A stretch of 64,000 nt of DNA from an uncultured archaeon (lineage in GTDB: Archaea; Asgardarchaeota; Lokiarchaeia; Sigyniarchaeales; SOKP01), in the NCBI GenBank assembly GCA_964388035.1, contig CAYLZE010000005.1, forward strand, positions 50,087 to 114,086, read 5' to 3'. The notes beneath the pieces were generated by a model that searched no databases, was not told the DNA's origin, and saw only the letters and a list, made by a program, of their open reading frames with translations. Both the position numbers and the translations under genes were made by a program. Shown here piece after piece: positions 46,184 to 63,108 of the stretch (within the stretch, counting starts at the first letter, position 1; every line of letters starts with the position of its first letter).

Positions 46184-47686
46184 ATGGATTTAACATTTTA
46201 TGGCGGCGTGAATGAAATTGGAGGAAATAAAATATTATTACGAAATAATAATACTAGGATTTTCTTAGATTTTGGCATATCTTATGCTAGAATGAAGGAA
46301 TATTATGAATTTCCTCTTTTACAGCCAAGTAATAAGGACGATCTATTAAAAACCTTCCTTATTCCGGATTTAAAAGGCGTGTATCAATACCATACTCATG
46401 AGGTCATTTATAATCAAAAAGGTCCCCAGAAGGTTAATCCTCAAAATGAAACCAGAATCATTGATGCAGTTTTGTTATCACATGCCCACATGGACCATTA
46501 TGGATACATTGGGCTTCTTAGACAGGATATACCAATTTATACCTCGAGGTTAACTAAAAGAATCATCCAATTGTATTCTAAAATGGGAAGAAATGAATTC
46601 AATGTAATAATTGATCATCTGAATTTGAAAAACATTAAAGAATCTAAGGAATTATTAATTAACGATTTGCTCATTAAGCGATTTAATGTAGATCATTCCA
46701 TTTTGGGGGCTTCAGCTTATTATATCGATGGCGACAAATCAATTGTCTATACGGGAGATTTTCGGTTACATGGGCTTAAAAAAGAAGTAACTGAAAATTT
46801 CCTAAATCAAGTTAAAAAGGAAAGGATAGATTATTTATTATGTGAGGGTACAAGACTCGGATTGCTAGATGAGAATGAAGATCAAATTGCTGAAAGCAAC
46901 ATTTTAGATTCAGAAGAAGAAGTTAGAAAAAAATGCATGAACATTATCGATAGTGAAGAGGATTTGGTAATATATGACGCATCCCAAGCGGATTTGGAAC
47001 GACTCCGAATCCTCTGGGAAGTTGCTAAGAAAACAGGTCGTGTCTTAGTAGTCGATTCTAAAAAAGCCTACTTGCTTCTAAATCTAAATAAGAAGAAGAA
47101 CATAGTGAAAGGTTTGCCAAAATTAGGAGATTTTAAAATTTTATTAGGAAGATCAAAATTAAGATCTTCTTCAAAAGCATGTAAGGAATTAACTGCAAGC
47201 TGTCCTGGTTTATATCTTGAATGTTTTAAATCGGGGAGGAAATATCATGAAAGGATTATGGGGGAGGAGGAAGAAATTTCGGATGATACTTACATTTGGG
47301 GTCCACAATTAAGAAAAAAAATATTGGACAAATCAAATGAATATCTCATTTATACTTCAAATGGTCCTTTACTTCTCTTACAATGTAAATTAAAGAAAGT
47401 ACCAATAAAGGGAACTTATATCTATGGAAAGGCAGAACCATTCAATGAAGAAATGGAATTTACTTTTGAGCGGTTAATGAATTGGTTAAAGTTATGCGAG
47501 TTAAACTTAGCATATGCACACACCACGGGACATTGCATGCCCGATGATTTAAAACGCGCAATTGAGATAATCAATCCTAAACAAATTATTCCCGTTCATA
47601 CCCAACATCCTGATTCTTTTAAAGAATTACTTCCAAACAATATTACTCTCATCAAACCCGAATTAAATCAGAAAATAATTTTATAA
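46184..47686 (+). CDS. RNase J-like beta-CASP metallo-beta-lactamase
   Basis: GGVNEIGGN, LDFG, SHAHMDH, VDHS, YTGDFR, CEGT, HTTGH, IPVHT. Confidence 0.88.
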   Translation: MDLTFYGGVNEIGGNKILLRNNNTRIFLDFGISYARMKEYYEFPLLQPSNKDDLLKTFLIPDLKGVYQYHTHEVIYNQKGPQKVNPQNETRIIDAVLLSHAHMDHYGYIGLLRQDIPIYTSRLTKRIIQLYSKMGRNEFNVIIDHLNLKNIKESKELLINDLLIKRFNVDHSILGASAYYIDGDKSIVYTGDFRLHGLKKEVTENFLNQVKKERIDYLLCEGTRLGLLDENEDQIAESNILDSEEEVRKKCMNIIDSEEDLVIYDASQADLERLRILWEVAKKTGRVLVVDSKKAYLLLNLNKKKNIVKGLPKLGDFKILLGRSKLRSSSKACKELTASCPGLYLECFKSGRKYHERIMGEEEEISDDTYIWGPQLRKKILDKSNEYLIYTSNGPLLLLQCKLKKVPIKGTYIYGKAEPFNEEMEFTFERLMNWLKLCELNLAYAHTTGHCMPDDLKRAIEIINPKQIIPVHTQHPDSFKELLPNNITLIKPELNQKIIL

Positions 47687-47800
47687 ACATATTTAAAAAC
47701 ATTTCAAACTAGGTAGTAAGTGAAAATTTCTATCAAGTAAACTAATAAAAAAGACAAATAATCTAAATAAATTCAAAATTGCTATCATGGGGCGATATCT

Positions 47801-49303
47801 ATAGAGTCGAAGGTAAGATTAACTTTTCTCGGAGGAGTAAATGAAATAGGAGGAAATATCGTTCTTTTAGAAGATTTTGTTAAGGATGTTAAGATTTTTC
47901 TTGATTTTGGGATAAAAATTAAGAAGTATTATAAACACTACGAATCAGGTGATTCGGCCAAGAGCATTGATGAATTAATCACCTTAAATCTGCTTCCCAA
48001 TGAGAAACATTTATCGGTGAAAAATTTATATACGCATGAGTTTAGCAACTTTAAGATAAGAAAGAAAAAATGTTCTGATAGTTCTAATCAATCATTAGAT
48101 GCTCTGTATCCTTCTAATTTAGACGGCGTTTTAATCTCCCATTCACATAAGGATCATTTTTCTGGACTTTCATACATGAATCGCACGATTCCTGTCTATG
48201 CGGGTGTCGTGACGAGAAAAATAATCAATGCCTTCTATAAATCCTCCAAAATTTCCTTGAATAATAATTTTGGGCAGTTAAATTGGATTACCTTCAGAAC
48301 AGGGCAGATTTTAGATATAAAAGGATTAAAGATTGTACCTTTTCACGTGGATCATTCAATTCCTGCTGCCTATGGTTTTATTATTTACACTTCTGTTGGT
48401 CCCGTAGTATATACGGGAGATTTTAGAATGCATGGATCCTTGTCTCATATGTCACGTGAATTCCTTGAAGAAATTCAGTCCCATCATATCATTCAATCAA
48501 AGAAAGTTCTCTCAAAGGAAGAGAGAAGCAGGATAGAGAAGGGTGTAAAAGTCTTAATTTGTGAAGGAACAAAAATTAATAAAAGTACTGTTGAATCAGA
48601 AAAAGAGGTGGAAGATAATTTAGATAAGTTATTTAAACAGAATCCCTTTGATTTTATTTTAGTAAAATACGATAGAATTGATTGGGATCGATTTCGAACA
48701 TTTTCCCATATGGCTAAAAAATATCAGTGGAAATATATAATTTCTGAAAAGGAGGCTTACTTTTACTATCTCTTGAATGAAGATGCCTTTCATATGACCA
48801 TGAAAGATCCTAATATCCTCACAGATAGCCACATTCTTATTTTAAGGAGTAATAAAGACAGATTTAAATGGCAGAAGAAAATTAGAAAAATAATCCGCGT
48901 TAACCGAATGGCATATCGTTTGATTACTTACTTGGAATTAAAAAACTTGAAGGAAAAGTATTTCCTATACATCACACACCTTAGTGATAGTTTATTTAAC
49001 CATATCAATTTTGATCGAAGGGGATTGTTTATATCCTCCTCCGTCGATCCTTACGTGGAGGAATTTTATGATAATACTAATGGCATTAGGTTAAAATTAG
49101 AACCACTTGGTATTCCTACCTATCGCATCCACGCTTCAGGTCATGCTACTCCACATGATTTGATCAATTTTATAGATAGCATTCGCCCCGAGATGCTCAT
49201 TCCCATTCATACAAAACATTCGGAATTTTTTAAAAACCTCTTTCGAAATTCAGACATAAAGGTCATCGTACCTGAAAAATATTCAGTGATTAATATCAAT
49301 TAA
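47801..49303 (+). CDS. Second RNase J-like beta-CASP protein; N-terminus extends to a probable ATA start
   Basis: In-frame VRLTFLGGVNEIGGN...FLDFG lies upstream of the GTG at 48017; SHSHKDH, VDHS, YTGDFR, HASGH, IPIHT. Confidence 0.85.
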   Translation: MESKVRLTFLGGVNEIGGNIVLLEDFVKDVKIFLDFGIKIKKYYKHYESGDSAKSIDELITLNLLPNEKHLSVKNLYTHEFSNFKIRKKKCSDSSNQSLDALYPSNLDGVLISHSHKDHFSGLSYMNRTIPVYAGVVTRKIINAFYKSSKISLNNNFGQLNWITFRTGQILDIKGLKIVPFHVDHSIPAAYGFIIYTSVGPVVYTGDFRMHGSLSHMSREFLEEIQSHHIIQSKKVLSKEERSRIEKGVKVLICEGTKINKSTVESEKEVEDNLDKLFKQNPFDFILVKYDRIDWDRFRTFSHMAKKYQWKYIISEKEAYFYYLLNEDAFHMTMKDPNILTDSHILILRSNKDRFKWQKKIRKIIRVNRMAYRLITYLELKNLKEKYFLYITHLSDSLFNHINFDRRGLFISSSVDPYVEEFYDNTNGIRLKLEPLGIPTYRIHASGHATPHDLINFIDSIRPEMLIPIHTKHSEFFKNLFRNSDIKVIVPEKYSVININ

Positions 49304-49441
49304 AAAGAGAGAATAATCTAACAATCTATTTATCTTAAAAATCATCATAAAATCTTACAAAGAGAGGAAATCAATAATAAACTTTTTAATTCTTTCTTTT
49401 GCTTTGCAATATTCTTGCATTATAACGATTGAATGCTATAA

Positions 49442-50191
49442 TTAATGTTTTTTGAAGCAAATAATTCCCCCAAATTCATTAATACGAATACCAGCAAGAC
49501 TCTCGTTTGATATAATTTTAGTTATAATCCCTTTATTTTCTGCAATCTGTTTGAGCCTATAAAGACGGTTATTTTGTTTAGAATTTTCAAGTAATTCATC
49601 TGTCATCAAGAGATAATCCAGCTTGTTAGCAACTTTTTTATCTTTTTTCCCTCCTTTAAGAATAATTTCTTCTATTTCGTTCAATCCATATACCACGCGG
49701 TAATTCACTTGGTCAAGATTAATGCTTTTTTCAAGTTGTTTCATTAATAAGTATGCTTCTTGAGCGGTTGTCCTTTTTATTATCTCTTTATTTTCTTCTT
49801 GTTGTAGTAAATGCCATGTTTCTTCTAAATTCCGAGCATTTCCAGTAAGTATTCCATAGCTTACTTGACTATCCCCTCGAGAATCAATAAGCCAACGATG
49901 ATGTTTTTTAATATATTCAAGAAAATTATGAGAGAGAGATGAATTTGGTGGGCTGGCAAGAAGTATACTTTTAAGACCTTGATTAATTGAAGATCTGAAT
50001 TCATTAATTATCTTCTCATAAAACTGAACTTTATCCCGATCATCCGCGTTTTTCCATTTTCGGGATAAGGATATGGTTTTTACTTTCTTAACTGATTCAC
50101 TAAAAACATACCATATATGAATTGCTTGTTCATCAAATCCAACTAAAACTGCAACATGATATCCCCGTTTTTGTCTTCGCTTATCTTTCAT
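49442..50191 (-). CDS. Pelota-like protein (eRF1 domains 2+3 only)
   Basis: ILLASP...FLEYI, VVYGLNEI, YLLMTDELL, KIISNESLAG.RINEFGGI; no N-terminal domain. Confidence 0.65.
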   Translation of the reverse strand: MKDKRRQKRGYHVAVLVGFDEQAIHIWYVFSESVKKVKTISLSRKWKNADDRDKVQFYEKIINEFRSSINQGLKSILLASPPNSSLSHNFLEYIKKHHRWLIDSRGDSQVSYGILTGNARNLEETWHLLQQEENKEIIKRTTAQEAYLLMKQLEKSINLDQVNYRVVYGLNEIEEIILKGGKKDKKVANKLDYLLMTDELLENSKQNNRLYRLKQIAENKGIITKIISNESLAGIRINEFGGIICFKKH

Positions 50192-50454: not shown

Positions 50455-50931
50455 TTAATCAGGAATGATCACAGAGGGATCTTCCTTAATTTTATCTAAT
50501 ACAATTTGTGTTTTAATTTCTTCGACCCCAGGTAAATTACGTAGGGTTTCAATAAGATTCATGGAGTCTTGGTGATCGAGACATTTTGCCATGATAAATA
50601 AGGGATATTCTCCCGTGATTACATATGCATATTTAACTTGAATCATTTCTAAAATCTTATTTTTAAGTGCATCTAAGGATTGCGAAGAATTTAGGCGAAG
50701 AGAAGCCATGACCATTTCCCTATACCCCAACTGGCGACAATCAATGAGCGTGACATATTGCTTGATGATATTCTGTTCTTTCATGCGATTTATACGCATT
50801 CGAATTGAAGTAGTACTTAAGCTGATCAATTTTTCAATATCACGCAAGGATGCTTTAGCATCATCTTGTAGGATTTTTAGTATTTCTTTATCGGTCTCAT
50901 CTAATTCTGCAATCTTTGGTATTCCTGCCAT
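50455..50931 (-). CDS. Lrp/AsnC-family transcriptional regulator
   Basis: LDETDKEILKILQDDAK...LSTTSIRMRINRM...ITGEYPL...IKTQIVL; divergent from tusA. Confidence 0.92.
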   Translation of the reverse strand: MAGIPKIAELDETDKEILKILQDDAKASLRDIEKLISLSTTSIRMRINRMKEQNIIKQYVTLIDCRQLGYREMVMASLRLNSSQSLDALKNKILEMIQVKYAYVITGEYPLFIMAKCLDHQDSMNLIETLRNLPGVEEIKTQIVLDKIKEDPSVIIPD

Positions 50932-51045
50932 TTTTTCCCATTCTCTTTAAAATAAGGTTAATCCTAACTTTTTATTAATTATAACTATATTTATCAAAAA
51001 TTAAAACTAATTTATGTTATGATGCTAACCATTTAAATTTTGCGT

Positions 51046-51116
51046 TTGTGATATTAGTTTAAAAAGGTTTATTCCAACTTGTGATAATCAAACACCGTAC
51101 TTTTATTATATGTGAT
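51046..51116 (+). promoter_or_regulatory. Triple-box operator/promoter upstream of tusA-dsrEFH
   Basis: TTGTGAT at 51046 and 51079, ATGTGAT at 51110; 18-mer ACTTTTATTATATGTGAT at 51099..51116. Confidence 0.8.
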
Positions 51117-51230
51117 GTATATTTAAATAGTAGATTACATTTGTACTAATTGAAAAAAAGATTATTATCACGTGTAATTAAAAAAAAACACAAAAGCAAT
51201 ACAAATTAAAAAAATTAAAGGGGTAATATA

Positions 51231-51455
51231 ATGTCAGAAGTTGTACTTGATTGTACAGGAATGAAGTGTCCGATGCCCGTGTTGAAAACTAAAAAAGAGT
51301 TGAGTAAATTAAGCACGGGACAGACTTTAAAGTTAATGGTTGACGATAAAGGCGCCTTAAAAGATATTCCGGCGTTATTACATAAAACTGGGGACGACTT
51401 GCTCGAAACTAAGGAAGAAGGAGAAAAAATTACGTTTACTATTAAAAAAGCGTAA
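51231..51455 (+). CDS. tusA: Sulfur carrier TusA/SirA
   Basis: LDCTGMKCPMPVLKTKK (CPxP), DD..A..DIP. Confidence 0.92.
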   Translation: MSEVVLDCTGMKCPMPVLKTKKELSKLSTGQTLKLMVDDKGALKDIPALLHKTGDDLLETKEEGEKITFTIKKA

Positions 51456-51473
51456 AGAACGGAGTTAGCGGTC

Positions 51474-51842
51474 ATGCATACATATACTATAGTGATAAGC
51501 ACGGAACCTTATAAATTTGAAGCAACGGATACATTGATAAATGTTGGAAATGCAATCATCAATCATGGAAATAAAATTCGGGGAATTTTTTTTTATGGGA
51601 GTGGCGTTTATAATATCAAGAAAGATATAGAAACAGGAATTAAGGTGCGTAATTTACCATCCAAATTAGAAGAATTCATTAAATTGAATAACATACAAGT
51701 AGCAGGATGCACGACATGGATCGGTCTCTGTGGTATAAAAGAAAATTGTTTTATCGATGGAGCAAAGGAAGAAGGATTAGGAGAATTAACTAACTGGACC
51801 TCAGAATCTGATAAATTAATTGTATTTGGTACCGGAGGATAG
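51474..51842 (+). CDS. dsrE: DsrE/TusD family sulfurtransferase
   Basis: TEPY, IFFYGSGVYN, conserved Cys in VAGCTTW, GLGEL...SDKLIVF. Confidence 0.85.
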   Translation: MHTYTIVISTEPYKFEATDTLINVGNAIINHGNKIRGIFFYGSGVYNIKKDIETGIKVRNLPSKLEEFIKLNNIQVAGCTTWIGLCGIKENCFIDGAKEEGLGELTNWTSESDKLIVFGTGG

Positions 51843-51847
51843 GAATC

Positions 51848-52216
51848 ATGATAAAATCTATTGTTATTATCTCAGATCATTCTCCTATCGGAAAAAATTC
51901 AGCTCGAGAAACTCTACGATTGGTTTCAGGTTTTGTAGGATTAGGGGTGGAATTAGATTGTAAGGTGATATTAACTGGAGATGCCGTTTTACTCATGAAT
52001 AAGCACTCCAATCCGAAAGCTATTGGAGCAGATTCATTTGATGAGGCTTTTGAAATGTTAGAACTCACGGATTCAGAAATATATTTACTGGATACCGCGT
52101 TAGAAGAGGTCGGATTAACTAAAGATGATCTTATCGATTATGAAAATCTCAAGGTGATATCGCTATCTCAAATGGTTAAGTTCATAGAACAAGCGGATAT
52201 GAGTTTTAGATTTTAA
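51848..52216 (+). CDS. dsrF: DsrF/TusC family protein
   Basis: HSPIGKNSARETLR, ILTGDAV, ends ADMSFRF. Confidence 0.8.
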   Translation: MIKSIVIISDHSPIGKNSARETLRLVSGFVGLGVELDCKVILTGDAVLLMNKHSNPKAIGADSFDEAFEMLELTDSEIYLLDTALEEVGLTKDDLIDYENLKVISLSQMVKFIEQADMSFRF

Positions 52217-52573
52217 ATGGGGTGGAAAAGAATGAAAGAAAATTATGATTTGCTGTACTTGTTTGGATACAGTCCAAGAACCGGAAAGGAATTAGAACGA
52301 TTACTCGCAATTGTTGAGCAACATCAAGAATCTGGGTTGCAGGTGGGGATGGTTTTGATTCATGATGGTGTCGTGGTAGCTTCCTCAATGGGTAAGCATC
52401 CTGAGGAAGTTAAGCGCCTGAGAGAACTCTCTATAGGATTACATGTAATGATACCTGATTTGCAAGCCCGAGGCCTTTCTTTAGATCACTTGGAGGAGAA
52501 CATCCAAGGTATTAATTACGAGGAATTAGTTGAGCTACTTGACAATGCGCAGAAAATCATATCGTGGATGTAA
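52217..52573 (+). CDS. dsrH: DsrH/TusB family protein
   Basis: LIHDGV, PDLQARG, INYEELVELL...ISW; start may be 52232. Confidence 0.82.
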   Translation: MGWKRMKENYDLLYLFGYSPRTGKELERLLAIVEQHQESGLQVGMVLIHDGVVVASSMGKHPEEVKRLRELSIGLHVMIPDLQARGLSLDHLEENIQGINYEELVELLDNAQKIISWM

Positions 52574-52871
52574 AGATTAAAGGCTTATAAAACAATAAAA
52601 AAGAAAAAAGATTTCCAAAATTCAAGAAAATTGAGTTAATTTGAGAGTAATACCAAGAAACTACATCTTTTTGTTCTTATTATTTATTTACTTCTTTAAA
52701 GCTATATTGTCAAATACAAGAGAAATTATAGGAATCTTTTTAAAAGTCTCATTATATGCCTTGAATTATAATTTAAAATTTTCCTTTTATTAATTTAAGC
52801 GGAAAACATGCACTTTAAGAAAGAAGAGTTCATAATTTTCTTTTTTTGATAAGGTTTGCATGAGTTTGCAC

Positions 52872-52941
52872 TTGTGATATTTTTATAAAGTTATCCTTAT
52901 GGTTTGTGATAATTAATGATAAAACTTTTATTATATGTGAT
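52872..52941 (+). promoter_or_regulatory. Triple-box operator/promoter upstream of the dsrE2-like gene
   Basis: TTGTGAT at 52872 and 52904, ATGTGAT at 52935; same 18-mer at 52924..52941. Confidence 0.8.
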
Positions 52942-53142
52942 TTAATTTTAAATAGTACCCTACATTTAATTTTAAGGAGTGATATCCTCCTTATCTTTAA
53001 AAAACATCAAAAAGTAAGTATTGGAGTAAAATGGTTTCCAAGCCAAATAAATACGGTCTTTTGATAAAATGGTTATCCAAAATACTCCAACTAATTGATT
53101 AAAATGCAGGGTCACTAAAAAATTAAAAGAAAGGTGGAAAAA

Positions 53143-53559
53143 ATGGTAGAAAAAATTAATTTTATTGTAAAGGACAAATCATTTGAGAAATTCATGATGA
53201 TGACGATCCTAGGAACCACAGGAGCCGCCATGGATACGGAAATGAACTTTTTCTTTACTTTTTGGGGGTTAAACCTCTTAAAAAAGTCATTTAAGCCAAA
53301 GGTTGCCGGAATGCCCTTTCCCATGAAAGGAATGGCGGCTAATATGTTTAGAAAAAGATTAAAGAAATTTGGAATGGAAAATCCTTGGGATCTGATCAAA
53401 GAAGCTGTGGAAGATGGGAAAATGAAATTATATCCTTGTCAAATGACGATGGACTTAATGGGAATTAAACGGGAAGAATTATGGGATTTCGTAGAAGATC
53501 CTATTGGTGCAGCTGGCTTCTTGGATATGGCAGAAGGGGCCAGAATTGTATCATTATAA
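53143..53559 (+). CDS. DsrE2/DsrE-like (YrkE-type) sulfur carrier
   Basis: FFFTFWGLNLLKK, LYPCQMTMDLMG, GAAGFL. Confidence 0.88.
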   Translation: MVEKINFIVKDKSFEKFMMMTILGTTGAAMDTEMNFFFTFWGLNLLKKSFKPKVAGMPFPMKGMAANMFRKRLKKFGMENPWDLIKEAVEDGKMKLYPCQMTMDLMGIKREELWDFVEDPIGAAGFLDMAEGARIVSL

Positions 53560-53900
53560 TTCTATGCAAATTTTTTGAAATTCTGTAATATCCGAAATTT
53601 TAAACAAGATTCTTCTACATGTTAGTATGGCATCAAAAGCTAAGTTAGCATAAGATTATAAATACAATTCTCGTAATAGAAAATTACATTGATAAAAAAT
53701 TGAAAAGTACAATGAGAAATAAAGAAGAAGGTTGTGATTACTTAATTCAGTAAATTAATAGGTTCTTTGTTTATATCTTTTTTTTAATTCTATTTTCTTA
53801 TCTTATTTTATTTTAGTCTTTTAAATGTGGTATTTTTAAATTTAAAATTGATCTTGTTTCTAATTTTGTTTGAAATTCAATGATAATTTGATTTTCGCGT

Positions 53901-53971
53901 TTGTGATATTACTTTTTAAATAGTAATTTCTTCTTGTGATAGTAAATGGAAAAACTTTTATTATATGTGAT
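53901..53971 (+). promoter_or_regulatory. Triple-box operator/promoter upstream of hdrC
   Basis: TTGTGAT at 53901 and 53934, ATGTGAT at 53965; same 18-mer at 53954..53971. Confidence 0.8.
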
Positions 53972-54029
53972 TCACTTTTAATTAAAAGTTTATATTTGTA
54001 ATATTATTAGCTAATATGGTGAAAAAAAA

Positions 54030-54578
54030 ATGTCAGATGTTAAAGAAGTACATCGTGAATTCAAGCTTGATGAAGAATTTGAGCCAGAATTCTTTAAAGA
54101 TATTGAACGACGGTCAAACATATTACAATGCATTCAATGCGGCACGTGCACTGCATCGTGCGAAAGTGGTCGATGGACTGCCTTAAAAACTCGATTAATC
54201 ATTAGAAAAGTCGTGTTAGGAGATTTATCGGTTCTAAAAGATCCTGACATTTGGCTCTGTACCACCTGTTATCAGTGTTATGAACGCTGTCCTCGTGATG
54301 TGCGTCCCACGGATGTAATCATGGAATTACGAAATATTGCCACTAAAATGGGGAACATATCTCCCAATCATAGAGCCGTGGTGGGCTATTTAAAAAACAC
54401 CGGACACGCAGTTCCTATTAACGACGCAGTAAGAAAACAACGCGTGGAACTGGGACTTGATGAACTTCCTCCGACCCTGTTCAAATATAAAGGAAAAAAA
54501 GGAGAAGAGGATCTCAAAAATATTCGAGAAAGATTGTTTCCCTTGCCTCTAGAGAAGGGAAAGGAGGGTAAGAATTAA
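54030..54578 (+). CDS. hdrC: Heterodisulfide reductase subunit C
   Basis: CIQCGTCTASC, WLCTTCYQCYERCPR, TGHAVP, LPPT. Confidence 0.93.
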   Translation: MSDVKEVHREFKLDEEFEPEFFKDIERRSNILQCIQCGTCTASCESGRWTALKTRLIIRKVVLGDLSVLKDPDIWLCTTCYQCYERCPRDVRPTDVIMELRNIATKMGNISPNHRAVVGYLKNTGHAVPINDAVRKQRVELGLDELPPTLFKYKGKKGEEDLKNIRERLFPLPLEKGKEGKN

Positions 54579-54579
54579 G

Positions 54580-55497
54580 ATGGTTAAGGAGAATACGTTT
54601 GCCTTCTTTTTGGGTTGCATAATGAATAATAGATACCCGCAGATTGAGAAGTCAACGAAGTACGTTATGGAAAGGTTGGGGTATACTCTATTGGATATGG
54701 AACGAGCCAGTTGCTGTCCGGCACCGGGCGTTCTCCGTTCATTTAATAAAATTGATTGGATGGTACTTGCCGCCCGGAACATTTGCATAGCGGAAAAGTT
54801 AGATGCGGATATTTTAACGGTTTGTAATGGTTGTTTTGGCACGCTTCAAGAGGTAAACAGGCATCTGAAGGAAAATGAAGCGCATCGGGAGTTAGTAAAC
54901 GAAAAATTAAAGCTCATTGGAGACTACCACTTTAACGGAACAATCGAAGTTAAGCACGTTGCTGAGGTATTGGGATATGAGATTGGTCCGTGGGGCATTG
55001 AGGATTTTATTACCAGGAAAGTACATGCCCGTGTAGCGGTTCATTATGGCTGTCATTTTTTAAAGCCCACGAAAATTAGGGAGATGGACAGTTCAGAAAA
55101 ACCAACAATCGTAGAGGACTTTATAAGTGCGTTGGGAGTTGAGGCCGTGCCATTTAAAGAGCAACTCACATGTTGTGGCGCGGGAGGTGGTCTGAAGGCC
55201 TTTGATGCTCCCTCCAGCATGAGCGTTTTTGCGGAGAAGATGAAGAACATTGATGAAGTGAAGCCAGATTTCATTTTAGATATATGTCCTTTCTGTCATT
55301 TACAATTTGAGACGGGGCAAGATTACTTGAACAAGAATAGGAACATGAATTATGATTATCCGGTAATTCATCTTTCCCAGCTCACGGCGTATTGCATGGG
55401 CATGGATCAAGAATTCGTCGGTTTACAATATCAGATGATGGGGAAAGACTACATTTTTGGAAAAGATACTAAAAAAGGAGAGGAGGAGATGGTTTAA
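54580..55497 (+). CDS. hdrB: Heterodisulfide reductase subunit B
   Basis: Two CCG domains: FLGCIMNNRYP, SCCPAPG, CNGC; HYGCH, CCGAGGG, CPFCHLQF. Confidence 0.94.
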   Translation: MVKENTFAFFLGCIMNNRYPQIEKSTKYVMERLGYTLLDMERASCCPAPGVLRSFNKIDWMVLAARNICIAEKLDADILTVCNGCFGTLQEVNRHLKENEAHRELVNEKLKLIGDYHFNGTIEVKHVAEVLGYEIGPWGIEDFITRKVHARVAVHYGCHFLKPTKIREMDSSEKPTIVEDFISALGVEAVPFKEQLTCCGAGGGLKAFDAPSSMSVFAEKMKNIDEVKPDFILDICPFCHLQFETGQDYLNKNRNMNYDYPVIHLSQLTAYCMGMDQEFVGLQYQMMGKDYIFGKDTKKGEEEMV

Positions 55498-55498
55498 G

Positions 55499-57535
55499 TT
55501 GACAATTAAAGAACACAAGTTGGAAAAGACGGCTTCTACAGAAGAACAGGACGAACCAAGTGAAGGGGAAGAGGAACCCCGCATAGGCGTTTTTGTATGT
55601 CATTGCGGGCATAATATTGCCGGTACGGTGGATGTAGAGAGGGTAGCAAAATATGCATCCACGCTTCCAGACGTGGTAAAAGCGGAACATTACATGTTCA
55701 TGTGTTCAAAACCAGGAGTGCAAATGGTAAAGGATTCCATCAAAGAATTGGGGGTGAATCGAACCGTGGTTGCCTCTTGTTCCAAAAATCAACACGGGAA
55801 GACCTTTGCGCACGCGATAGAAGAGATGGGAATCAACAAGCATCGACACCAGCAAGTAAACGTGAGGGAATATTGTAGTTGGGTGCATCAAAAAGATAAA
55901 GAGAAAGCTACTCAAAAAGCTCTCCGCTTGATTGAAGCGGGAGTGAATAGAGCTCGAAAATTAGAGGACGTAGAAACTCGAAAAATAAGCACTACCAAGG
56001 CCGCTTTAGTCATAGGAGGAGGTATTGCAGGACTTCGAGCTGCTAATGATATGGCAGAATTGGGCATCCCGGTCTACTTGGTGGAAAAAGAATCCACGAT
56101 AGGAGGACACATGACTAGATTAAATAAAACATTCCCGACTAATGAATGTCCTCAATGTAGCATATCACCTTTGACGAATGGAGTTGCGAATCATCCTTTA
56201 ATCGAATTATATACGAATGCTCAAGTTAAGGATGTTGAGGGTTCTCTTGGGAACTTTGAGATAGAAGTGGAAATCAAACCTCGATATGTCAATGACAACT
56301 GTACGAGCTGTGGAGAATGTGCCAAGAATTGTCCTGTAGAAGTACCAAGTGAGTGGGATATGGGAATGTCCATGCGTAATGCTATCTATAAGGCATATCC
56401 ACAAGCGATTCCCGCTACGTATGTTAGGGATAAAAAAACGTGTATTGAATGTAACACTTGTATAAATGTTTGCCCCGTAAATGCTATTGATTTTTCGATG
56501 GAAAAAGAAACGAAGAAATTCAAGGTGGGATCCATCGTGGTTGCTGCGGGTTATGATGAATATGATCCTACAGAAATAGAACCATACCATTATGGACAAG
56601 AAGGGTATGAGGATGTTATTACTCAATTAAAGTTAGAGAGAATGCTTTCTCCCACTTCAATGACCAATAGTGAGGTTCTTAGGCCATCAGATGGTAAGAT
56701 CCCGAAGAATATCGTAATGATTCAATGTGTTGGAAGCAGAAATGATCAAGTAGGAAATGCATATTGCACGGGAGTGTGCTGTAAAATCGCTGTTAAAAAT
56801 TCTGGGATTGTTAAAGAAATGTATCCTGATTCTAATGTTACTATTTGCTATATAGATATCAGAACCCCCGGGTTGAACTTTGAGGAATATTATAAATCTT
56901 CCCAAGAAAAAGGAGTGCGATTTATTCGGGGAAGACCCTCGGAAATAGTGAGAGATCCCAACACGGGAGAATTAAGAGTTATTGTTGAAGACACCCTTAG
57001 CCAAACACCCTTACAATTAAAAGCAGATTTAGTAATTCTTTCGGCGGCAATGGTTCCTCCTGAAGGAATCGGACCACTTGGATCAAAATTACATGTCTTG
57101 CGCTCAAAGGAGGGTTTTCTCAAGGAGTTCCATATCAAGATGAACCCTACTCTTAGCAGCAAGGGTGGAATCTTTTTGGCGGGAGCGATTCAAGGACCTA
57201 AAGATATATCGGAAACTGTCGCTCATGCAGGAAGTGCCGCGGCATTAGCAGCTGCACCCTTAGTTAAGGGATACATTGAAAAAGAAATGCTAGTACCCTC
57301 GGTTGCCAGAGATTTATGCACAAAGTGTGGGTTATGTGCAACCGTGTGCGCTCCCGCGGCAATTATTTTTAATGAAGAAGGTTATCCCGTTGTTAATGAG
57401 GTTGCTTGTAAATCTTGTGGAATGTGCATGCCCGCATGTCCTACAGCAGCGATTCAGCTCTTGAATTTTCGTGATGATCAACTATTAGATGAAATTAAAG
57501 CAGTATCTGGAGGAGGTGTGTGTGCCGATGACTGA
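55499..57535 (+). CDS. hdrA: Heterodisulfide reductase subunit A
   Basis: RIGVFVCHCGHNI, GGGIAG, KTFPTNECPQCS, inserted ferredoxin, QCVGSR...CTGVCC, C-terminal ferredoxin. TTG start at 55499 inferred. Confidence 0.94.
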   Translation: MTIKEHKLEKTASTEEQDEPSEGEEEPRIGVFVCHCGHNIAGTVDVERVAKYASTLPDVVKAEHYMFMCSKPGVQMVKDSIKELGVNRTVVASCSKNQHGKTFAHAIEEMGINKHRHQQVNVREYCSWVHQKDKEKATQKALRLIEAGVNRARKLEDVETRKISTTKAALVIGGGIAGLRAANDMAELGIPVYLVEKESTIGGHMTRLNKTFPTNECPQCSISPLTNGVANHPLIELYTNAQVKDVEGSLGNFEIEVEIKPRYVNDNCTSCGECAKNCPVEVPSEWDMGMSMRNAIYKAYPQAIPATYVRDKKTCIECNTCINVCPVNAIDFSMEKETKKFKVGSIVVAAGYDEYDPTEIEPYHYGQEGYEDVITQLKLERMLSPTSMTNSEVLRPSDGKIPKNIVMIQCVGSRNDQVGNAYCTGVCCKIAVKNSGIVKEMYPDSNVTICYIDIRTPGLNFEEYYKSSQEKGVRFIRGRPSEIVRDPNTGELRVIVEDTLSQTPLQLKADLVILSAAMVPPEGIGPLGSKLHVLRSKEGFLKEFHIKMNPTLSSKGGIFLAGAIQGPKDISETVAHAGSAAALAAAPLVKGYIEKEMLVPSVARDLCTKCGLCATVCAPAAIIFNEEGYPVVNEVACKSCGMCMPACPTAAIQLLNFRDDQLLDEIKAVSGGGVCADD

Positions 57536-57980
57536 ATGTGAAGTCGAAGAGCAAGAAATAAAAGATAAATATGAAAACATCGTGGTTTTCATGTGTAATG
57601 AATGTGGTCAAGGATCAGCAAACACGGCGGGTGTGGCCCGGATGGGATATGATCCAGCTATTCGAATCGTTCGCGTCCAATGCACCGGCCAAGTAGGACC
57701 CATTCAAATCATGGATGCAATCAACAACGGAGCAGATTCTGTGGCATGTATTGGTTGTTGTTTGGGGGCATGTCATTTCTTTAATGGAAATATCCTCTCA
57801 ATGCATCGAATAAAGTTATTAAAAAAGTTGTTTAAGGAGTTAGGGTATAGCGATCAATTTGTCAATCAGTATACTTCGCGTGCTGCAGAAGGTGAGACCG
57901 CAACTGGAGATTTTGAGGATATAGTGGAACGATTATCAAAAGCAATAAAAGAAGGAGGAGTCATAAAGAATGAATGTTAA
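57528..57980 (+). CDS. mvhD: MvhD [2Fe-2S] subunit
   Basis: FMCNEC...AG..RM.Y...IRIVRVQCTG, GC..GACHF..GN; SD GGAGGAGG. Confidence 0.88.
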   Translation: MTECEVEEQEIKDKYENIVVFMCNECGQGSANTAGVARMGYDPAIRIVRVQCTGQVGPIQIMDAINNGADSVACIGCCLGACHFFNGNILSMHRIKLLKKLFKELGYSDQFVNQYTSRAAEGETATGDFEDIVERLSKAIKEGGVIKNEC

Positions 57981-59211
57981 AGTTTTTCAGTTCGGTGGAT
58001 GTAATAAATGTTTTCATGAAGCCTTGTTATTGAAGGAAAATGATGCGCTAAACGTGGAATTTATTTCCGATCCAAAGTCTTGGAAAGAAGAAAAAGCAGA
58101 TGTATCCGTAATTGCAGGACATTTAATTCCAAAAGATAAAGAAATATTAGGAAGGATTAAAGCAAATTCCGGTAAAGTAATTGGATATGGAGATTGTACC
58201 ACAACAGGAGGAGTTTTTGCCTTAGCAAACCAAAGAGGCTTTGACATAACACCCTTAAAAGAATTCATCCCAAATGCCATGAACATTAATAGTTGTTTGG
58301 GTGAAATTGACGAATTAAGGACCGAAATTGAGGGAAAAGAGCAATCCAAGTTGGGAGTTTTATGCAATTCTTGTAAACGGAAAGCAACTTGTGAATATTT
58401 GGAAGAGGTACATCGTCAAATTGAATTTGAAGATGAAGAGACATGCTTTAATGACTTGGGATATCTTTGTAATGGATTCATCGCTAAAGAATGCAAGGAA
58501 CGCTGCGTGGACTTTAATGCGCCCTGTCGGGGATGCAAACCCATGGTAGAACGCTCGGGAATACGAATGTTAGGGATGTTTGGAACCTTGATGGGGAATA
58601 TTGATATGGCCACGGAACATTCCGAGAAAGGAGCTACGGACAAATTAGCCGATGCAGAGGACGATCTCACGCGAAGCTTGCCCGATGTAGTAGGGAATTT
58701 TTTTAGGTTTTCTCTCCGTACTTCAGGATTACCCAAAGGAAGGATTCCACCATCTGGTAGTCTATTGGAAAATGTGTTCACGGGTCGATTGATAGAAGAA
58801 TTACCTTTAATTGCCGGATTGCTTGGTGGAGATCGATGCATCTCTTTCATGTTAAAATTCATAGAACCATATGAAAAAGCTAACGGGATTGAAATTAGTC
58901 CTAAGACGCAAGAATATAGACAGCATTTATTAGAATTAGAACAAGATTTACAATCAGCGATAAAGGAAGAAGATCCTCAGAAATATAAGGAAATCACGAA
59001 AGAAATAAGAAAAATTGCTGGAAATATGAATTTATCTAACATGTTTTTTGGTGGATTTCGATCTCAAATTGATGGACAAGATAATTTTGAAGATTATAAA
59101 GTACATTTATTCGATATAATTGAGGGTACCTATAAAAATGGTACACTTGAATATGAAATCGATTCAAATGGAATAGTAAAACAAATAAAAATTAAGGAGG
59201 AAAAGAAATGA
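57970..59211 (+). CDS. Atypical MvhG-like Fe-S protein with C-terminal extension
   Basis: GCNKC, YGDCTTTGGV, CNSC, CFNDLGYLCNG, C...C....PCRGC, FFRFSL; about 150 extra C-terminal residues. Confidence 0.75.
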   Translation: MNVKVFQFGGCNKCFHEALLLKENDALNVEFISDPKSWKEEKADVSVIAGHLIPKDKEILGRIKANSGKVIGYGDCTTTGGVFALANQRGFDITPLKEFIPNAMNINSCLGEIDELRTEIEGKEQSKLGVLCNSCKRKATCEYLEEVHRQIEFEDEETCFNDLGYLCNGFIAKECKERCVDFNAPCRGCKPMVERSGIRMLGMFGTLMGNIDMATEHSEKGATDKLADAEDDLTRSLPDVVGNFFRFSLRTSGLPKGRIPPSGSLLENVFTGRLIEELPLIAGLLGGDRCISFMLKFIEPYEKANGIEISPKTQEYRQHLLELEQDLQSAIKEEDPQKYKEITKEIRKIAGNMNLSNMFFGGFRSQIDGQDNFEDYKVHLFDIIEGTYKNGTLEYEIDSNGIVKQIKIKEEKK

Positions 59212-61670
59212 GTTTTGCATTATTAAAAGAAGAAATAATTGACGCAGGCTTATGCCAAGGATGTGGACTTTGTGCGGGATCATGCAAGCATATTGAAATG
59301 GATGTTATGCGTCCTAATATCAAAGATTATTGCATTTTAGAAAGAGGTGCGGAAGATTGTGGAAAATGTTATCAAAATTGTCCTCAAGTAAAACAAAAAT
59401 CATTTAAAGAAAAACAACCCACGGCTATTTATTCTTTAAGAAGTACTAATCCCGAAATTTTAGAGAAAGCAACAAGTGGAGGATTTATTACAGCTCTTAC
59501 GAAACATCTGTTGGAAGAAGGGATTTTAAAAAATATCGTCATGGTCCAAAATGTAGATGATCGAGCAAAAGCTTCGATTGTTTCGGATCCCAAGGAGGTA
59601 ATTAAGAAAGCCGGAGTTGTATATGGTCGTTCGGGAGTGCTAGAAAAGTTAGTTACCCTTACTGGTGATCCCACGGAGCAAATTGGTATTGTAGGCGTTC
59701 CTTGCGAAATGCGTGGTGCAGCGGAATTAGAAACGGAAATGAATCGAGACATATTAAAAATGGGATTATTTTGCAATTCGAGCATACGAACAGTACAAAC
59801 GGATCATGGATTGGTTTGTTCACCTTGCTGTAATGGATGTCCCTCGGGTGTTAATGCTCAAGGATATATATCCTTGATTCGAGAAGGTAAATATCAAGAA
59901 GCCGTCGATTTAATTAGAGAAAACAATCCCCTACCCTCGATTTGTGGAAGGATTTGTACTCATGAATGCGAGCATGGCTGTACTTTGATCGGAGAAGACC
60001 ATCCTGTTGCTATACGGGAGCTTAAAAAGTTTATCACAGAATGGGAGATAACCAATTCCGATAAAAAGTTTTCTCGTTGGAGTAAAAATAAGAAAGATAA
60101 GATTGCTATCATTGGATCGGGGCCAGCAGGACTTACAGCAGGATACTATTTGGCGAAAATGGGATATCAACCAACCATATTTGAGAAGAGTGATCAAGTC
60201 GGAGGCATGTTAAGGTTCGGGGTACCGCAGTTCAGGCTACCCAATTATGTTTTAGATTATGATATTCAAATGATCAAACGAGTTGGCGTGAATATTCAAA
60301 CAAATAAACCTTTTGGTCCTGAGATGACCATCGAAAATTTAAAAGATGAGGGATTTAAAGCTATTTTCATAGCTATTGGGCAATATAAACCAAGAACTCT
60401 TCATCTTGAAGGAGAAGATTTACCAAATGTATATGTTGCAATCAATTTTCTGATTGATAGGAAATACCGATATTGGGAACAGAAGGAGGAGTTTGTAGGC
60501 AAAACAATCGGGATTATTGGAGGAGGCCCCGTAGCAGTAGATGTTGGTCAAACTGCCCTAAGATTAGGAGCTGAAGAGGTTCATCTGGTGGATATAATGA
60601 ACGAACAAGATTTAGAATTAGTACTCAGGGATATCCCCGAAAATGAGAAACCTTTGATGAAATATCATTACACCACTTCAACTTCCAAAATCACACAAAA
60701 TTCAGAAAAGAAATTGGTGTTGAATTGTTATAAAATCGAATGGGGAGAACCAAATGAAACTGGGAGAAAAGAGTTAAAAAAAGTGGAAAACTCAGATTAC
60801 ACCATACCTGTTGACGTGATTGTCATAGCTGTTGGTCAAGCCGTTGATTTTGAACTAATTGACGTGGCAACAAATAACGAAATAGAAAAGGATAGAAATA
60901 AAATTTCAATTAATCCCATAACCTTTGAAACTAACCTTCCAGGAGTCTTCGCAGGTGGGGATATTGTTGCGAATTCTAAGGCGGTTGCTATTGCGGCGAT
61001 TGCACATGGAAAGGAAGCTGCTATTTCCATTGATAGATATCTCAAGGGTGAAGATTTACTACAAGGCAGATATAAACAAGATAAAATGTTCTTTACGGGT
61101 CCACGCAAACCTCCAAAAGATTATTCCCAAAAACCTGAAAGTTTAGAAGAGGCGACAGAGGATGTAAAATGGGATTTTTCTGAAATTGATGCCATGTTTA
61201 ATGAAGATCTTGCATTAAAAGAGGCTCGACGCTGTCTCAGCTGCAATCATTTCTGTGCTCATTGTCAAGACTTTCCTGCTATATATTCCGATTTTTCAGC
61301 GGGAGAGGTAGGCTCTAAGGAAGGATTTACTACGGTGGTTGCGTGGTCAGCAAGAGGAAAAGAAATTATTGATAATGCCATATCCATAGGATTATTTGAA
61401 GTCGGAGAGGTAAATCAGGAAGAATTAAGAAAGGCCATTCATCTTAAATCCAAGCGCGATTTACTAACTTTCGAAAAAACATCTCGTCAACAAGTTCTTG
61501 AATACATTACCAAGCAAGGACCCAGCACCATAAGCAACATGGCAGAAAATTTATCTTTGGAACCCAAAAAAGTGAGATATGAAGCCTTAAGATTAGTCCA
61601 ACTCAATAAAGTTGAAATGAAAATTCAAACGGGTACAAATGATCCATTATTTACCCTAACTTGCGATTAA
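59208..61670 (+). CDS. FrhB/FdhB-like protein with inserted GltD/NfnB-like FAD/NAD(P) oxidoreductase and C-terminal wHTH
   Basis: FrhB N-part (GLCQGCGLC, SGGFITAL, VGVPC, GLFC); GltD block (PCCNGCP...CGRICTHECEHGC, GSGPAG, FAGGD, EARRCLSC); FrhB C-part (CAHCQDF...SDFSAG.VGS..GFTTVV); HTH tail. Confidence 0.8.
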   Translation: MSFALLKEEIIDAGLCQGCGLCAGSCKHIEMDVMRPNIKDYCILERGAEDCGKCYQNCPQVKQKSFKEKQPTAIYSLRSTNPEILEKATSGGFITALTKHLLEEGILKNIVMVQNVDDRAKASIVSDPKEVIKKAGVVYGRSGVLEKLVTLTGDPTEQIGIVGVPCEMRGAAELETEMNRDILKMGLFCNSSIRTVQTDHGLVCSPCCNGCPSGVNAQGYISLIREGKYQEAVDLIRENNPLPSICGRICTHECEHGCTLIGEDHPVAIRELKKFITEWEITNSDKKFSRWSKNKKDKIAIIGSGPAGLTAGYYLAKMGYQPTIFEKSDQVGGMLRFGVPQFRLPNYVLDYDIQMIKRVGVNIQTNKPFGPEMTIENLKDEGFKAIFIAIGQYKPRTLHLEGEDLPNVYVAINFLIDRKYRYWEQKEEFVGKTIGIIGGGPVAVDVGQTALRLGAEEVHLVDIMNEQDLELVLRDIPENEKPLMKYHYTTSTSKITQNSEKKLVLNCYKIEWGEPNETGRKELKKVENSDYTIPVDVIVIAVGQAVDFELIDVATNNEIEKDRNKISINPITFETNLPGVFAGGDIVANSKAVAIAAIAHGKEAAISIDRYLKGEDLLQGRYKQDKMFFTGPRKPPKDYSQKPESLEEATEDVKWDFSEIDAMFNEDLALKEARRCLSCNHFCAHCQDFPAIYSDFSAGEVGSKEGFTTVVAWSARGKEIIDNAISIGLFEVGEVNQEELRKAIHLKSKRDLLTFEKTSRQQVLEYITKQGPSTISNMAENLSLEPKKVRYEALRLVQLNKVEMKIQTGTNDPLFTLTCD

Positions 61671-61699
61671 ATTAAAAAATAATTAAGGAGGAATTATAC

Positions 61700-61936
61700 A
61701 TGAAATGTGATAGTGAATTAAACGTTTGCGGATTGGTTTGTCCGGTTCCAGCTCTAAAGACTAAGCAAGAATTGCGAAAGATGCGTCCTGGAACGGTGCT
61801 TAAAGTAATTACCGATTACAAGCCAGCCAGCGAATCTGTTCCCAGAGACTTAGCTAAAACCAAGCACAAACATTTAGGAACGGAATTTAATGATGATGAC
61901 GAGCAATGGTACATGTATTTTGAAGTTGTAAAATAA
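61700..61936 (+). CDS. tusA: Second TusA/SirA sulfur carrier
   Basis: LNVCGLVCPVPALKTK (CPxP), LKVITD; SD AAGGAGG. Confidence 0.9.
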   Translation: MKCDSELNVCGLVCPVPALKTKQELRKMRPGTVLKVITDYKPASESVPRDLAKTKHKHLGTEFNDDDEQWYMYFEVVK

Positions 61937-62006
61937 CCAAAAATTAAATTATAAATAATTTCTTTTAATCTATCTTTTTTTTATTTTTTAGCATTTTAGC
62001 AACTTT

Positions 62007-62360
62007 TTACATCCAAGAGACTATTTTAGGATGATCTACTAAAAGATCCACTAAAGCGTTATAATCAATGAGTTTGATTTTTTCTTGTATCTCATTCAAA
62101 TCCATACCTCGTGCTTTCATATCAGGGACTAATGCGAAAAGATTAGCAGCTAACCCCATTAACTTTTCTAAATTAGGATTTATTTCTGACTTTTTTGAAA
62201 GACCAATAACCCCATCATGAAGGAACACTAAACTTACCTCAGCACTCAATACTTGAACTTGGTCCTCAATTATCTTAACTAATTCTTTAAAAGCTTTGTA
62301 TATATTAATACTATAACCAAACAAGTAAATAATTCTTTTGGATTCCATAACTTTTCCCAT
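62007..62360 (-). CDS. dsrH: DsrH/TusB family protein (copy 2)
   Basis: FLHDGV, PDMKARG, IDYNALVDLL...VSWM. Confidence 0.82.
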   Translation of the reverse strand: MGKVMESKRIIYLFGYSINIYKAFKELVKIIEDQVQVLSAEVSLVFLHDGVIGLSKKSEINPNLEKLMGLAANLFALVPDMKARGMDLNEIQEKIKLIDYNALVDLLVDHPKIVSWM

Positions 62361-62365
62361 CCTAT

Positions 62366-62743
62366 TTAATATTTAAACGTAAAATCTGCCTCTAATATTA
62401 ATTTTGAGATGAGATCATGACTAATTAGTTGAATACTATCACTTGTCATCAGGTCCCCCTCAGTTAAACCCAAAATTGTAAGATCTTCCTCACATATGTA
62501 AATTTCTAGATTCGAAAGGTCCATCAATTTTTTTAGATCATTCAAGGAATCCAAATTAAGTGCAAGAGGATCAATTTGGCGGTTTAAAAAATAAATAGCG
62601 TCCTTGAGTAATACCACCTTACAATCCTCAATATCTCCAACTGCTAATATGCCCGAGGCCAATCGAATTGATTCAATTACAGAATTCTTTCCAAACGGTG
62701 AATCTTCGCATATTATTAAAATTGAATTCATGTTGGTTTTCAT
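62366..62743 (-). CDS. dsrF: DsrF/TusC family protein (copy 2)
   Basis: DSPFGKNSVIESIR, LLKDAIY, ADFTFKY; start 62743 or 62731. Confidence 0.8.
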   Translation of the reverse strand: MKTNMNSILIICEDSPFGKNSVIESIRLASGILAVGDIEDCKVVLLKDAIYFLNRQIDPLALNLDSLNDLKKLMDLSNLEIYICEEDLTILGLTEGDLMTSDSIQLISHDLISKLILEADFTFKY

Positions 62744-63108
62744 CTCCCCGGTCCAAAAAAAATGACCCGATCTGAATTTGCTATTAATTCCGAAAGTCCT
62801 CCTAATCCCTCTATACATGCACTTTCTATGAATTCGGAAGACTTAATTCCCGTGATGCTTATCCACGTACTACAGGCCGCCACCTTGGCTTGATATTTAT
62901 TACTGAATTCAAGCAATCGTTTTGGTAAATTTCTAAATGAATTCCCGACTTCTCTATCACCTTTAATGCTATAGACGCCACTCCCATAGAAAAAGATTCC
63001 CAAAATCCGATGTCCTTTGCTGATAATTGCTTCTCCTAAATTAATTAAGGTATCCAATGCTTCATATTTATATGGTTCCGCTGAAACGATGAATGAAAAT
63101 GTTACCAT
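62740..63108 (-). CDS. dsrE: DsrE/TusD family protein (copy 2)
   Basis: AEPY, IFFYGSGVY, VAACSTW, SDRVIFF. Confidence 0.85.
   Translation of the reverse strand: MVTFSFIVSAEPYKYEALDTLINLGEAIISKGHRILGIFFYGSGVYSIKGDREVGNSFRNLPKRLLEFSNKYQAKVAACSTWISITGIKSSEFIESACIEGLGGLSELIANSDRVIFFGPGR

Follow-up and report, generated by a model that had tools for sequence, protein, structure and literature searches.

The 64,000-nucleotide stretch of DNA analyzed here (the window, part of contig CAYLZE010000005.1) comes from a Lokiarchaeon and contains, at positions 50455 to 63108, a block of 16 genes in which one heterodisulfide reductase (Hdr) complex, HdrABC, is surrounded by genes for sulfur carriers of the TusA and DsrE families. 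We propose that this is a cytoplasmic, flavin-based bifurcating HdrABC that is uncoupled from H2 and would use sulfane sulfur held on the carriers as its high-potential acceptor. To net reduction of carrier sulfur by HdrABC we assign a probability of roughly 0.42; the broader claim, that carrier-borne sulfur is an Hdr substrate in either direction, is probably correct. As read from the sequence, the parts of the complex, its cluster ligands, a nickel-free input arm, an NADH-type motif, co-inheritance and a shared promoter are all in place.

The relatives of the host are Promethearchaeota of the class Lokiarchaeia, and the source genome (5.47 Mb, labeled G000) is 96.7% complete and 7.3% contaminated. 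Salt-marsh metagenomes hold near-identical DNA, independent salt-marsh assemblies cover the region, and no RNA holders are listed for the window. All 16 genes were located at the positions given below and assigned to families by Pfam, with NCBIfam used in addition for the carriers, HdrC, HdrB and the FrhB-family protein. The survey marker for the block was its distinctive MvhG-like protein (MvhG*), searched in 400 Asgard genomes, and gene order was inspected at 40 loci, including the source locus; the surveyed genomes are kin, and their locus counts are not independent.

Linkage and co-inheritance of the carrier and Hdr genes

The marker matched 80 of the 400 genomes, one of them through a weak match to an ordinary MvhG, so that ~79 carry MvhG*. 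The rule in Lokiarchaeia is the order lrp / tusA-dsrE-dsrF-dsrH-dsrE2-hdrC-hdrB-hdrA-mvhD-mvhG*-frhB-tusA, which includes P. syntrophicum MK-D1, Ca. L. ossiferum, Ca. Harpocratesius and Ca. Sigynarchaeum. In Thorarchaeia the block is rearranged, with a DsrE-type gene before hdrC and with tusA, often together with dsrEFH, after frhB. Across the inspected loci, tusA lies directly 3' of frhB in 35 of 39 that could be scored, a DsrE-type gene lies 5' of hdrC in 30 of 32 by BLAST (the remaining two are DsrE-like at a looser threshold), and the flavoprotein gene frhB is co-encoded in 40 of 40. The lrp gene stays with the block in Lokiarchaeia, sitting between dsrE2 and hdrC in MK-D1, L. ossiferum and Harpocratesius. 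Conservation of the linkage in relatives, on which the initial annotation had made its proposal depend, is thus borne out, as carriers and Hdr stay linked, despite rearrangement, in two classes and in one family of methanogens (the Methermicoccaceae).

The second, convergent dsrEFH set that had been counted with the cluster is present on the minus strand (dsrH, 62007..62360; dsrF, 62366..62743; dsrE, 62740..63108) but is not part of the conserved block, since among the other 39 loci it adjoins the block in only 2 with the Lokiarchaeia-type order and in one Thorarchaeote. Its dsrH is a lineage-specific neighbor, and its DsrE keeps Cys79, is 54% identical to the first DsrE and has no TGTGAT promoter.

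An 80-bp element containing three TGTGAT boxes at intervals of 31-33 bp recurs upstream of tusA1, dsrE2 and hdrC. On the plus strand, copy 1 (51038..51117) has spacings of 33 and 31 bp and its third box lies within a common 17-mer, copy 2 (52864..52942) has TGTGAT at 52873, 52905 and 52936, and copy 3 (53893..53972) has it at 53902, 53935 and 53966. The triple element occurs at 3 sites in the 5.47-Mb genome, all of them in the block, against ~0.004 expected, which shows that the shared promoter is not due to chance; the three-box scan of the genome returned no further regulon members. Because the exact triple is kept only in some relatives, the motif drifting with distance, the promoter is lineage-level evidence. 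In many relatives dsrE2 and hdrC are separated by 30-70 bp, consistent with one transcript for both genes in those organisms. The element is a candidate operator of the adjacent Lrp/AsnC regulator (50455..50931, minus strand), whose gene is divergent from tusA1.

A natural deletion is present in the only same-genus genome (G162, L144:6950-8165). There, 58 bp of the hdrC start run closely into the 3' end of tusA2, from which we conclude that the hdr block was cut out, and the first dsrEFH is a broken dsrE-dsrH remnant, with lrp, tusA1, dsrE2 and the second dsrEFH intact. This is one case of co-loss of the hdr block and dsrEFH.

The MK-D1 literature lists the Hdr part of the block and does not comment on the carriers. 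In this organism a second, divergent hdrC-hdrB-hdrA set lies immediately upstream of tusA1 (L039:1-3663).

Active cysteines and other contexts of the sulfur carriers

The initial count of nine carrier-family genes is right. Those outside the second dsrEFH are all on the plus strand and encode TusA1 (51231..51455), a DsrE/TusD-like protein (51474..51842), a DsrF/TusC-like protein (51848..52216), a DsrH/TusB-like protein (52217..52573), a DsrE2-family carrier (53143..53559) and TusA2 (61700..61936), the most conserved carrier with 85% mean column identity. A sulfur-binding Cys is present in five of the nine products, namely at Cys13 of the CPxP motif in TusA1, Cys14 in TusA2, Cys79 in both DsrE copies and the Cys of YPCQM in DsrE2. 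Each of these is invariant across 29-39 aligned orthologues (30 of 30 for TusA1 and for DsrE2). The expectation that every carrier keeps its Cys holds for these five and fails for DsrF and DsrH, which have no Cys at the sulfur-binding site, neither DsrH copy containing any Cys at all; this is normal for DsrF and DsrH.

DsrC was found in 0 of the 400 Asgard genomes, so DsrEFH needs another acceptor. In the source genome we found no sulfite reductase domain (NIR_SIR) and no DsrAB-type reductase, and MnmA (PF03054) gave weak partial matches only. Reverse Dsr (rDsr) and a TusABCDE-MnmA relay were rejected on these results.

In other Asgards, carrier genes are also found next to HdrBC of two further, unrelated types (L147, L152, L157). 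In G149 (L152:6275-13260), tusA-yeeE-dsrEFH directly precedes a genuine MvhG-MvhA hydrogenase and a different hdrC-hdrB; dsrEFH lies near mvhG-mvhA-hdrCBA in G232, and G128 has dsrE2-hdrCBA-tusA. At methanogen hdrB loci, tusA was found in 0 of 68, with flanks of up to 8 kb.

The source genome contains further carrier genes outside the block. These are a tusA-iscS-iscU-like cluster (C3:82350-84694) and a dsrE-tusA pair (C19:36950-37555), both likely housekeeping sulfur relays, and a possible selenium or sulfur import cluster (C47:22931-27198) with a split YeeE/YedE pair, tusA, a 417-aa DsrE-domain protein, a second TusA-like open reading frame (ORF) and a gene that by eye looks like selD. In another genome (L149:9973-10572), a TusA fused to a Roadblock/LC7 domain adjoins tusA-dsrEFH-lrp.

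The Hdr core and its substrate pocket

The genes hdrC (54030..54578), hdrB (54580..55497) and hdrA (55499..57535) follow one another on the plus strand. HdrC (180 bits, TIGR03290 cut-off 160) and HdrB (362 bits, cut-off 345) both pass the NCBIfam equivalog cut-offs for the coenzyme B (CoB)-coenzyme M (CoM) enzyme, and in alignment HdrB keeps all ligands of both non-cubane clusters (ten Cys and one His; HdrB and HdrA residues are numbered as in PDB 5ODC). HdrA is of the full methanogen type, aligning over its whole length with 5ODC (E 4e-197) and only partially with the sHdrA structure 6TJR (5e-39). It keeps the equivalents of E356 and K409, which in work by Wagner in 2017 were reportedly assigned to the bifurcating FAD. 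Because HdrA is full length with these two residues, electron bifurcation by it is plausible. The likely true starts include 53143 for dsrE2, 55499 (TTG) for hdrA, 57528 for mvhD and 62743 for the second dsrF.

In a tree of 110 sequences the block HdrBs form one clade on a long stem (100/100, stem 0.52), the Methermicoccaceae are its sister (100/98), and the two together group with methanogen HdrB, leaving the other Asgard paralogues outside (98/92). Bacterial HdrB, among them those of sHdr and Flx-Hdr, are not represented in this tree, whose outgroup comes from the 80 sequences best matching the Methermicoccaceae protein; we draw no conclusion from it about a donor or about the direction of any transfer. 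Six HdrB-type paralogues are encoded in the source genome.

The CoM/CoB contacts of HdrB have been named as R14, G46, G198, R201, F233 and R240 (PMC13261682). The HdrB of the block keeps R14, G46, G198 and F233, R14 being kept in most paralogues too. R201, present in 68 of 68 methanogen proteins, is Lys in 17 of 21 block HdrBs; R240, which varies in methanogens as well, is Thr, Gly or Ser (Thr here); and a new Arg replaces G49 in 20 of 21. Judged by these residues, the pocket appears retuned, not abolished, and would still suit an anionic thiol arm. A complex prediction for HdrB with TusA2 scored 0.00, which gives no verdict and is evidence neither for nor against their interaction.

A CoM search of the 96.7% complete source genome found no McrA, ComA, above-cut-off ComE or cysteate synthase, as the proposal of a different substrate had anticipated (CoB synthesis genes were not searched). 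Stand-alone comD/comE-like pairs above the TIGR03846 cut-off occur in 7 of 31 Lokiarchaeia (L298-L303), none of them with an evident comA or cysteate synthase gene beside it, and ComA was found in 2 of 135 family genomes. CoM synthesis as a general trait of Lokiarchaeia was rejected on this basis.

A nickel-free input arm

The electron input arm is encoded, on the plus strand, by mvhD (57528..57980; [2Fe-2S] connector, PF02662), mvhG* (57970..59211) and a gene for an FrhB-family flavoprotein (59208..61670). Residues 1-255 of MvhG* match the Fe-S wire of MvhG, with invariant cluster cysteines, and are fused to a tail of 160 residues (~58732-59211) that has zero Cys. The best PDB matches to the tail profile are [NiFe] large subunits (FrhA, E 8.8e-5), and the tail aligns to Asgard MvhA (E 3e-5), other residues standing where MvhA has the nickel motif RxCGxC; a first profile comparison of the tail with a single MvhA gave nothing. 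The full-length MvhG* model was poor (pLDDT 54), and the tail was therefore folded alone (pLDDT 91). Each of the fold matches listed for this model is weak (best E 0.056), but all are members of one family, that of the NiFe large subunit/complex I 49-kDa proteins. Because the tail is Cys-free and matches large subunits in both profile and fold, we read the arm as a nickel-free hydrogenase relic, in which the tail would derive from MvhA and probably fills the MvhA site. No [NiFe] large subunit bearing RxCGxC/DPCxxC is encoded in the block.

In the FrhB-family protein, a GltD/NfnB-type flavin module (~59775-61247), which has an acidic motif of the NADH type, stands in place of the central segment, and a short helical domain forms the C terminus. 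The span from GLFC to CxxCxD measures 59 residues in Methermicoccus, 21 in Thorarchaeia and 497 here, where it holds the flavin module. In FrhB this span contains the sheet next to F420 (148-172), and the Ser of the F420 loop is Ser209 (PMC3591093); here the sheet is replaced and the Ser reads Glu, both features being kept in Methermicoccus. An acidic VDI motif takes the place of the YRR of NADPH enzymes in the module, and this holds for 28 of the 29 fusions that were scored. By the usual rule for Rossmann folds, an acidic motif indicates NADH. Given this motif and the loss of F420-site features, NADH is the likelier donor to the last subunit, so that of the two donors first suggested, NADH is retained as likely and F420H2 becomes doubtful. 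The source genome does encode CofE.

The insert varies among relatives. One genome (G153, L046:6134-8605) has a flavin insert of lower identity with an NADPH-type YRR, suggesting that its module was replaced, and in G201 and G260 a short spacer that contains Cys stands in place of the insert.

The orthologous operon of Methermicoccus

The Methermicoccaceae have the same order, comprising two DsrE-type genes, hdrC, hdrB, hdrA, mvhD, mvhG*, frhB and tusA, and the orthologous order is also found in one 1.5-Mb genome among 351 of their class. In M. shengliensis this operon is Amam_01016-01024 (PMC8630106 supplement); it was named FrhBG-HdrA2B2C2 and read as an F420H2:CoM-S-S-CoB oxidoreductase, an interpretation made without measured activity, and the carriers are absent from the main text (PMC8630106). 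In M. shengliensis strain ZC-1, from methanol to trimethoxybenzoate, expression relative to ribosomal protein genes (same supplement) falls from 0.81 to 0.46 for tusA, from 0.65 to 0.29 for hdrB and from 1.36 to 0.87 for the tusD-like gene. The listed operon members examined all fall, with the flanking fae/hps barely moving (0.37 to 0.32), which supports co-transcription of carriers and Hdr in M. shengliensis. Since this CoM/CoB-using organism co-expresses the orthologous operon with TusA/DsrE, lack of CoM and CoB is not the reason why the carriers are present.

Other features of the window

Outside the block, a two-gene pair (~263 aa and ~329 aa; ORF lengths only) occurs in three tandem copies on the minus strand at 7994-13742. 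At 46184-50191, two tandem metallo-beta-lactamase/RNase J-like genes stand with a convergent gene for a 249-aa protein that has a weak match to eRF1 domain 3; the metallo-beta-lactamase genes also flank the locus in G162.

Proposed function and alternatives

In the reaction that we propose, TusA1, DsrEFH and DsrE2 would gather sulfane sulfur derived from polysulfide or cysteine and hand it to TusA2, and HdrB would then reduce it to HS-, with the sulfur still protein-bound or already moved onto a small anionic thiol. With bifurcation, the balance would be 2 NADH + 2 Fd(ox) + carrier-SSH -> 2 NAD+ + 2 Fd(red) + carrier-SH + HS-, where Fd is ferredoxin. The S0/HS- couple lies at ~-270 mV under standard conditions and at ~-180 mV with 1 mM sulfide. 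If S0/HS- stands in for a protein persulfide and NADH is at -320 mV (PMC5296606), arithmetic indicates that ferredoxin could be reduced down to ~-460 mV at 1 mM sulfide, and that the reverse direction is favored at standard concentrations. The system is therefore likely to be near equilibrium and may be reversible.

Several observations weigh against net carrier-sulfur reduction. The energy margin with NADH as donor is thin by the same arithmetic. HdrB keeps four of the named CoM/CoB contacts, and Methermicoccus keeps R201, R240 and a full F420-type FrhB in a CoM/CoB-using host. Genes of the dsrH family are present in 225 of the 400 Asgard genomes against ~79 with MvhG*, and in G188 (L155) lrp-tusA-dsrEFH-dsrE2 is intact with no Hdr adjoining, so the carriers must have other uses. 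Lastly, the MK-D1 block transcripts are at an ordinary level (RPKM 182-348).

A possible, though less favored, alternative is that Hdr reduces a small disulfide (in Methermicoccus CoM-S-S-CoB, in Asgards some analogue of it) and that the carriers are accessory, providing sulfur for building or repair of the non-cubane clusters or for a thiol cofactor. This reading stays alive because carriers also accompany this Hdr in Methermicoccus, which has CoM-S-S-CoB and an HdrB with R201 and R240 unchanged, and whose operon has the published oxidoreductase assignment given above (PMC8630106). It also accommodates the methanogen HdrBs as nearest sampled relatives, the retained backbone of the CoM/CoB pocket, the occurrence of carriers without this Hdr, and the several non-native anionic disulfides accepted by methanogen Hdr (PMC13261682). 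Set against it, the absence of adjoining tusA at ordinary methanogen hdrB loci argues against a general co-encoding of carriers for maturation, a set of five carriers with Cys from three families is large for such a role, the source genome has its separate tusA-iscS-iscU cluster on C3, and no CoM route was found there.

It is unlikely that the complex runs in reverse for assimilation, Fd(red) + HS- + carrier thiol -> NADH + carrier persulfide, with the sulfur going to tRNA thiolation, molybdopterin, Fe-S or Cys synthesis. This direction is the one favored with NAD at standard potentials (arithmetic from PMC5296606 values and textbook S0/HS-), an Lrp regulator suggests amino-acid sensing, and the source genome yielded no sulfite reductase domain. 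In Ca. Harpocratesius (L037:7584-17989), an IscS/NifS cysteine desulfurase, an extra TusA and a ThiF/MoeB-family gene are inserted in the block, and frhB is cut to 142 aa. Such biosynthetic neighbors, however, occur in 1 of 40 loci, the source genome already has cysteine desulfurases, and a large bifurcating complex would be costly for a small anabolic flux.

The two remaining alternatives are improbable even when taken together. The first is an H2-linked Mvh-Hdr with MvhA supplied in trans, as the literature assumes for Asgard Hdr. The statement that mvhA is lacking holds for the window but not for the source genome, where contig C28 encodes an intact MvhA with its own MvhG and HdrA. A partner MvhA elsewhere had been named as grounds for dropping the sulfur proposal; formally one exists, but this one does not bite as a refutation because it has its own MvhG. 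At a contig end on C46 (58-1380), near hypD, there is a second MvhG, a 440-aa protein of the Vhu type, indicating a likely second hydrogenase whose large subunit may be unassembled. A preprint couples a group 3c hydrogenase to Hdr and persulfides (10.1101/2025.07.22.663070). MvhA in trans was nevertheless rejected as very improbable, as the hydrogenases of C28 and C46 each have their own MvhG, the Cys-free relic in MvhG* probably occupies the MvhA site, and the flavoprotein accompanies the block at every inspected locus. Dissimilatory sulfur oxidation by an sHdr equivalent, which TusA and DsrE-type transferases always accompany (PMC11094781) and for which three GcvH-family genes are present in the source genome, was rejected as similarly remote, since there is one HdrB in place of B1/B2, HdrA is of the full methanogen type and not short, no lipoate-binding gene was seen in the gene order of any of the 40 loci, and one GcvH gene adjoins a gcvT-like gene.

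What HdrABC reduces in organisms that lack coenzymes M and B has long been asked, and Asgard genomes hold many such complexes. Carrier-delivered sulfur, as proposed for this operon, is a concrete candidate that can be tested, because the block is present in cultured MK-D1 (DSAG12_01139-01151), L. ossiferum and Harpocratesius and in the easily grown M. shengliensis. If the proposal is correct, Lokiarchaeia could have sulfur as an outlet for electrons besides H2, a point of relevance to syntrophy models for the origin of eukaryotes. More tentatively, Lokiarchaeia, Thorarchaeia and Methermicoccaceae might share a distinct Hdr subfamily in which a TusA/DsrE persulfide is the direct HdrB substrate and a swappable input arm (F420H2, NADH or NADPH) is built on the nickel-free remnant of a hydrogenase; Asgard fermenters would then have a sulfur sink coupled to ferredoxin and would depend less on H2-consuming partners. 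Annotations that count MvhG* as a hydrogenase part overstate H2 use.

Comparison with known systems

The persulfide idea for Asgard Hdr is already known from the 2025 preprint of Nobs et al. (10.1101/2025.07.22.663070), where the legend to Fig. 5 proposes as a hypothesis that a Nerearchaeum Hdr reduces TusA/DsrE persulfides to sulfide; in the part of the text available, the donor is H2 with a group 3c hydrogenase, and no operon, phylogeny or nickel-free arm is described. A literature search, with most subscription journals beyond its reach, found no paper describing the operon, the nickel-free arm or the carriers as a unit. New here are the triple promoter, the combination in G162 of an hdr deletion with decay of dsrEFH, the loss of F420-site features and the co-expression in Methermicoccus.

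The block is not an Mvh-Hdr, an Elp-Hdr or Fdh-Hdr, an sHdr, a Flx-Hdr or a DsrC/TusE relay, because a defining feature fails in each. MvhAGD-HdrABC (5ODC/5ODR, 9SW2, 9SFI) shares with it HdrA, HdrB, HdrC, MvhD, the MvhG wire, the HdrB ligands and E356/K409, but here MvhA is a fused Cys-free relic, input is through a flavoprotein, carriers are co-encoded and no Mcr or CoM genes were found. FrhBG-HdrA2B2C2 of Methermicoccus is a true orthologue with the same gene order, although it has a complete F420-type FrhB and the CoB arginines. sHdr-LbpA likewise has TusA and DsrE-type transferases with active Cys beside an Hdr-like complex, whereas it combines two HdrB/C pairs with a short HdrA and with lipoate-binding proteins and takes sulfane sulfur to sulfite (PMC11094781).

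Elp-Hdr/Fdh-Hdr, for which F420H2 as donor and CoM-S-S-CoB as acceptor have been shown, also has a nickel-free arm made of a dead relic and an FrhB-family flavoprotein, docked through an MvhD homologue (PMC12350162); its relic comes from FdhA and not from MvhG/MvhA, it has no carriers, and MvhG* here takes the place of the truncated FdhA (ElpA). FlxABCD-HdrABC of Desulfovibrio, a proposed NADH-fed bifurcating Hdr for which a DsrC disulfide is the postulated acceptor, is the best functional analogue in having protein-borne sulfur as acceptor (PMC5296606). It differs in its FlxA-type NADH input, which is absent here, where MvhD (FlxD-like) is the only counterpart of FlxABCD, and in its use of DsrC, which was not found in the 400 Asgard genomes. 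By analogy, the block would therefore be most like Elp-Hdr on its input side and most like the postulated Flx-Hdr-DsrC system on its output side.

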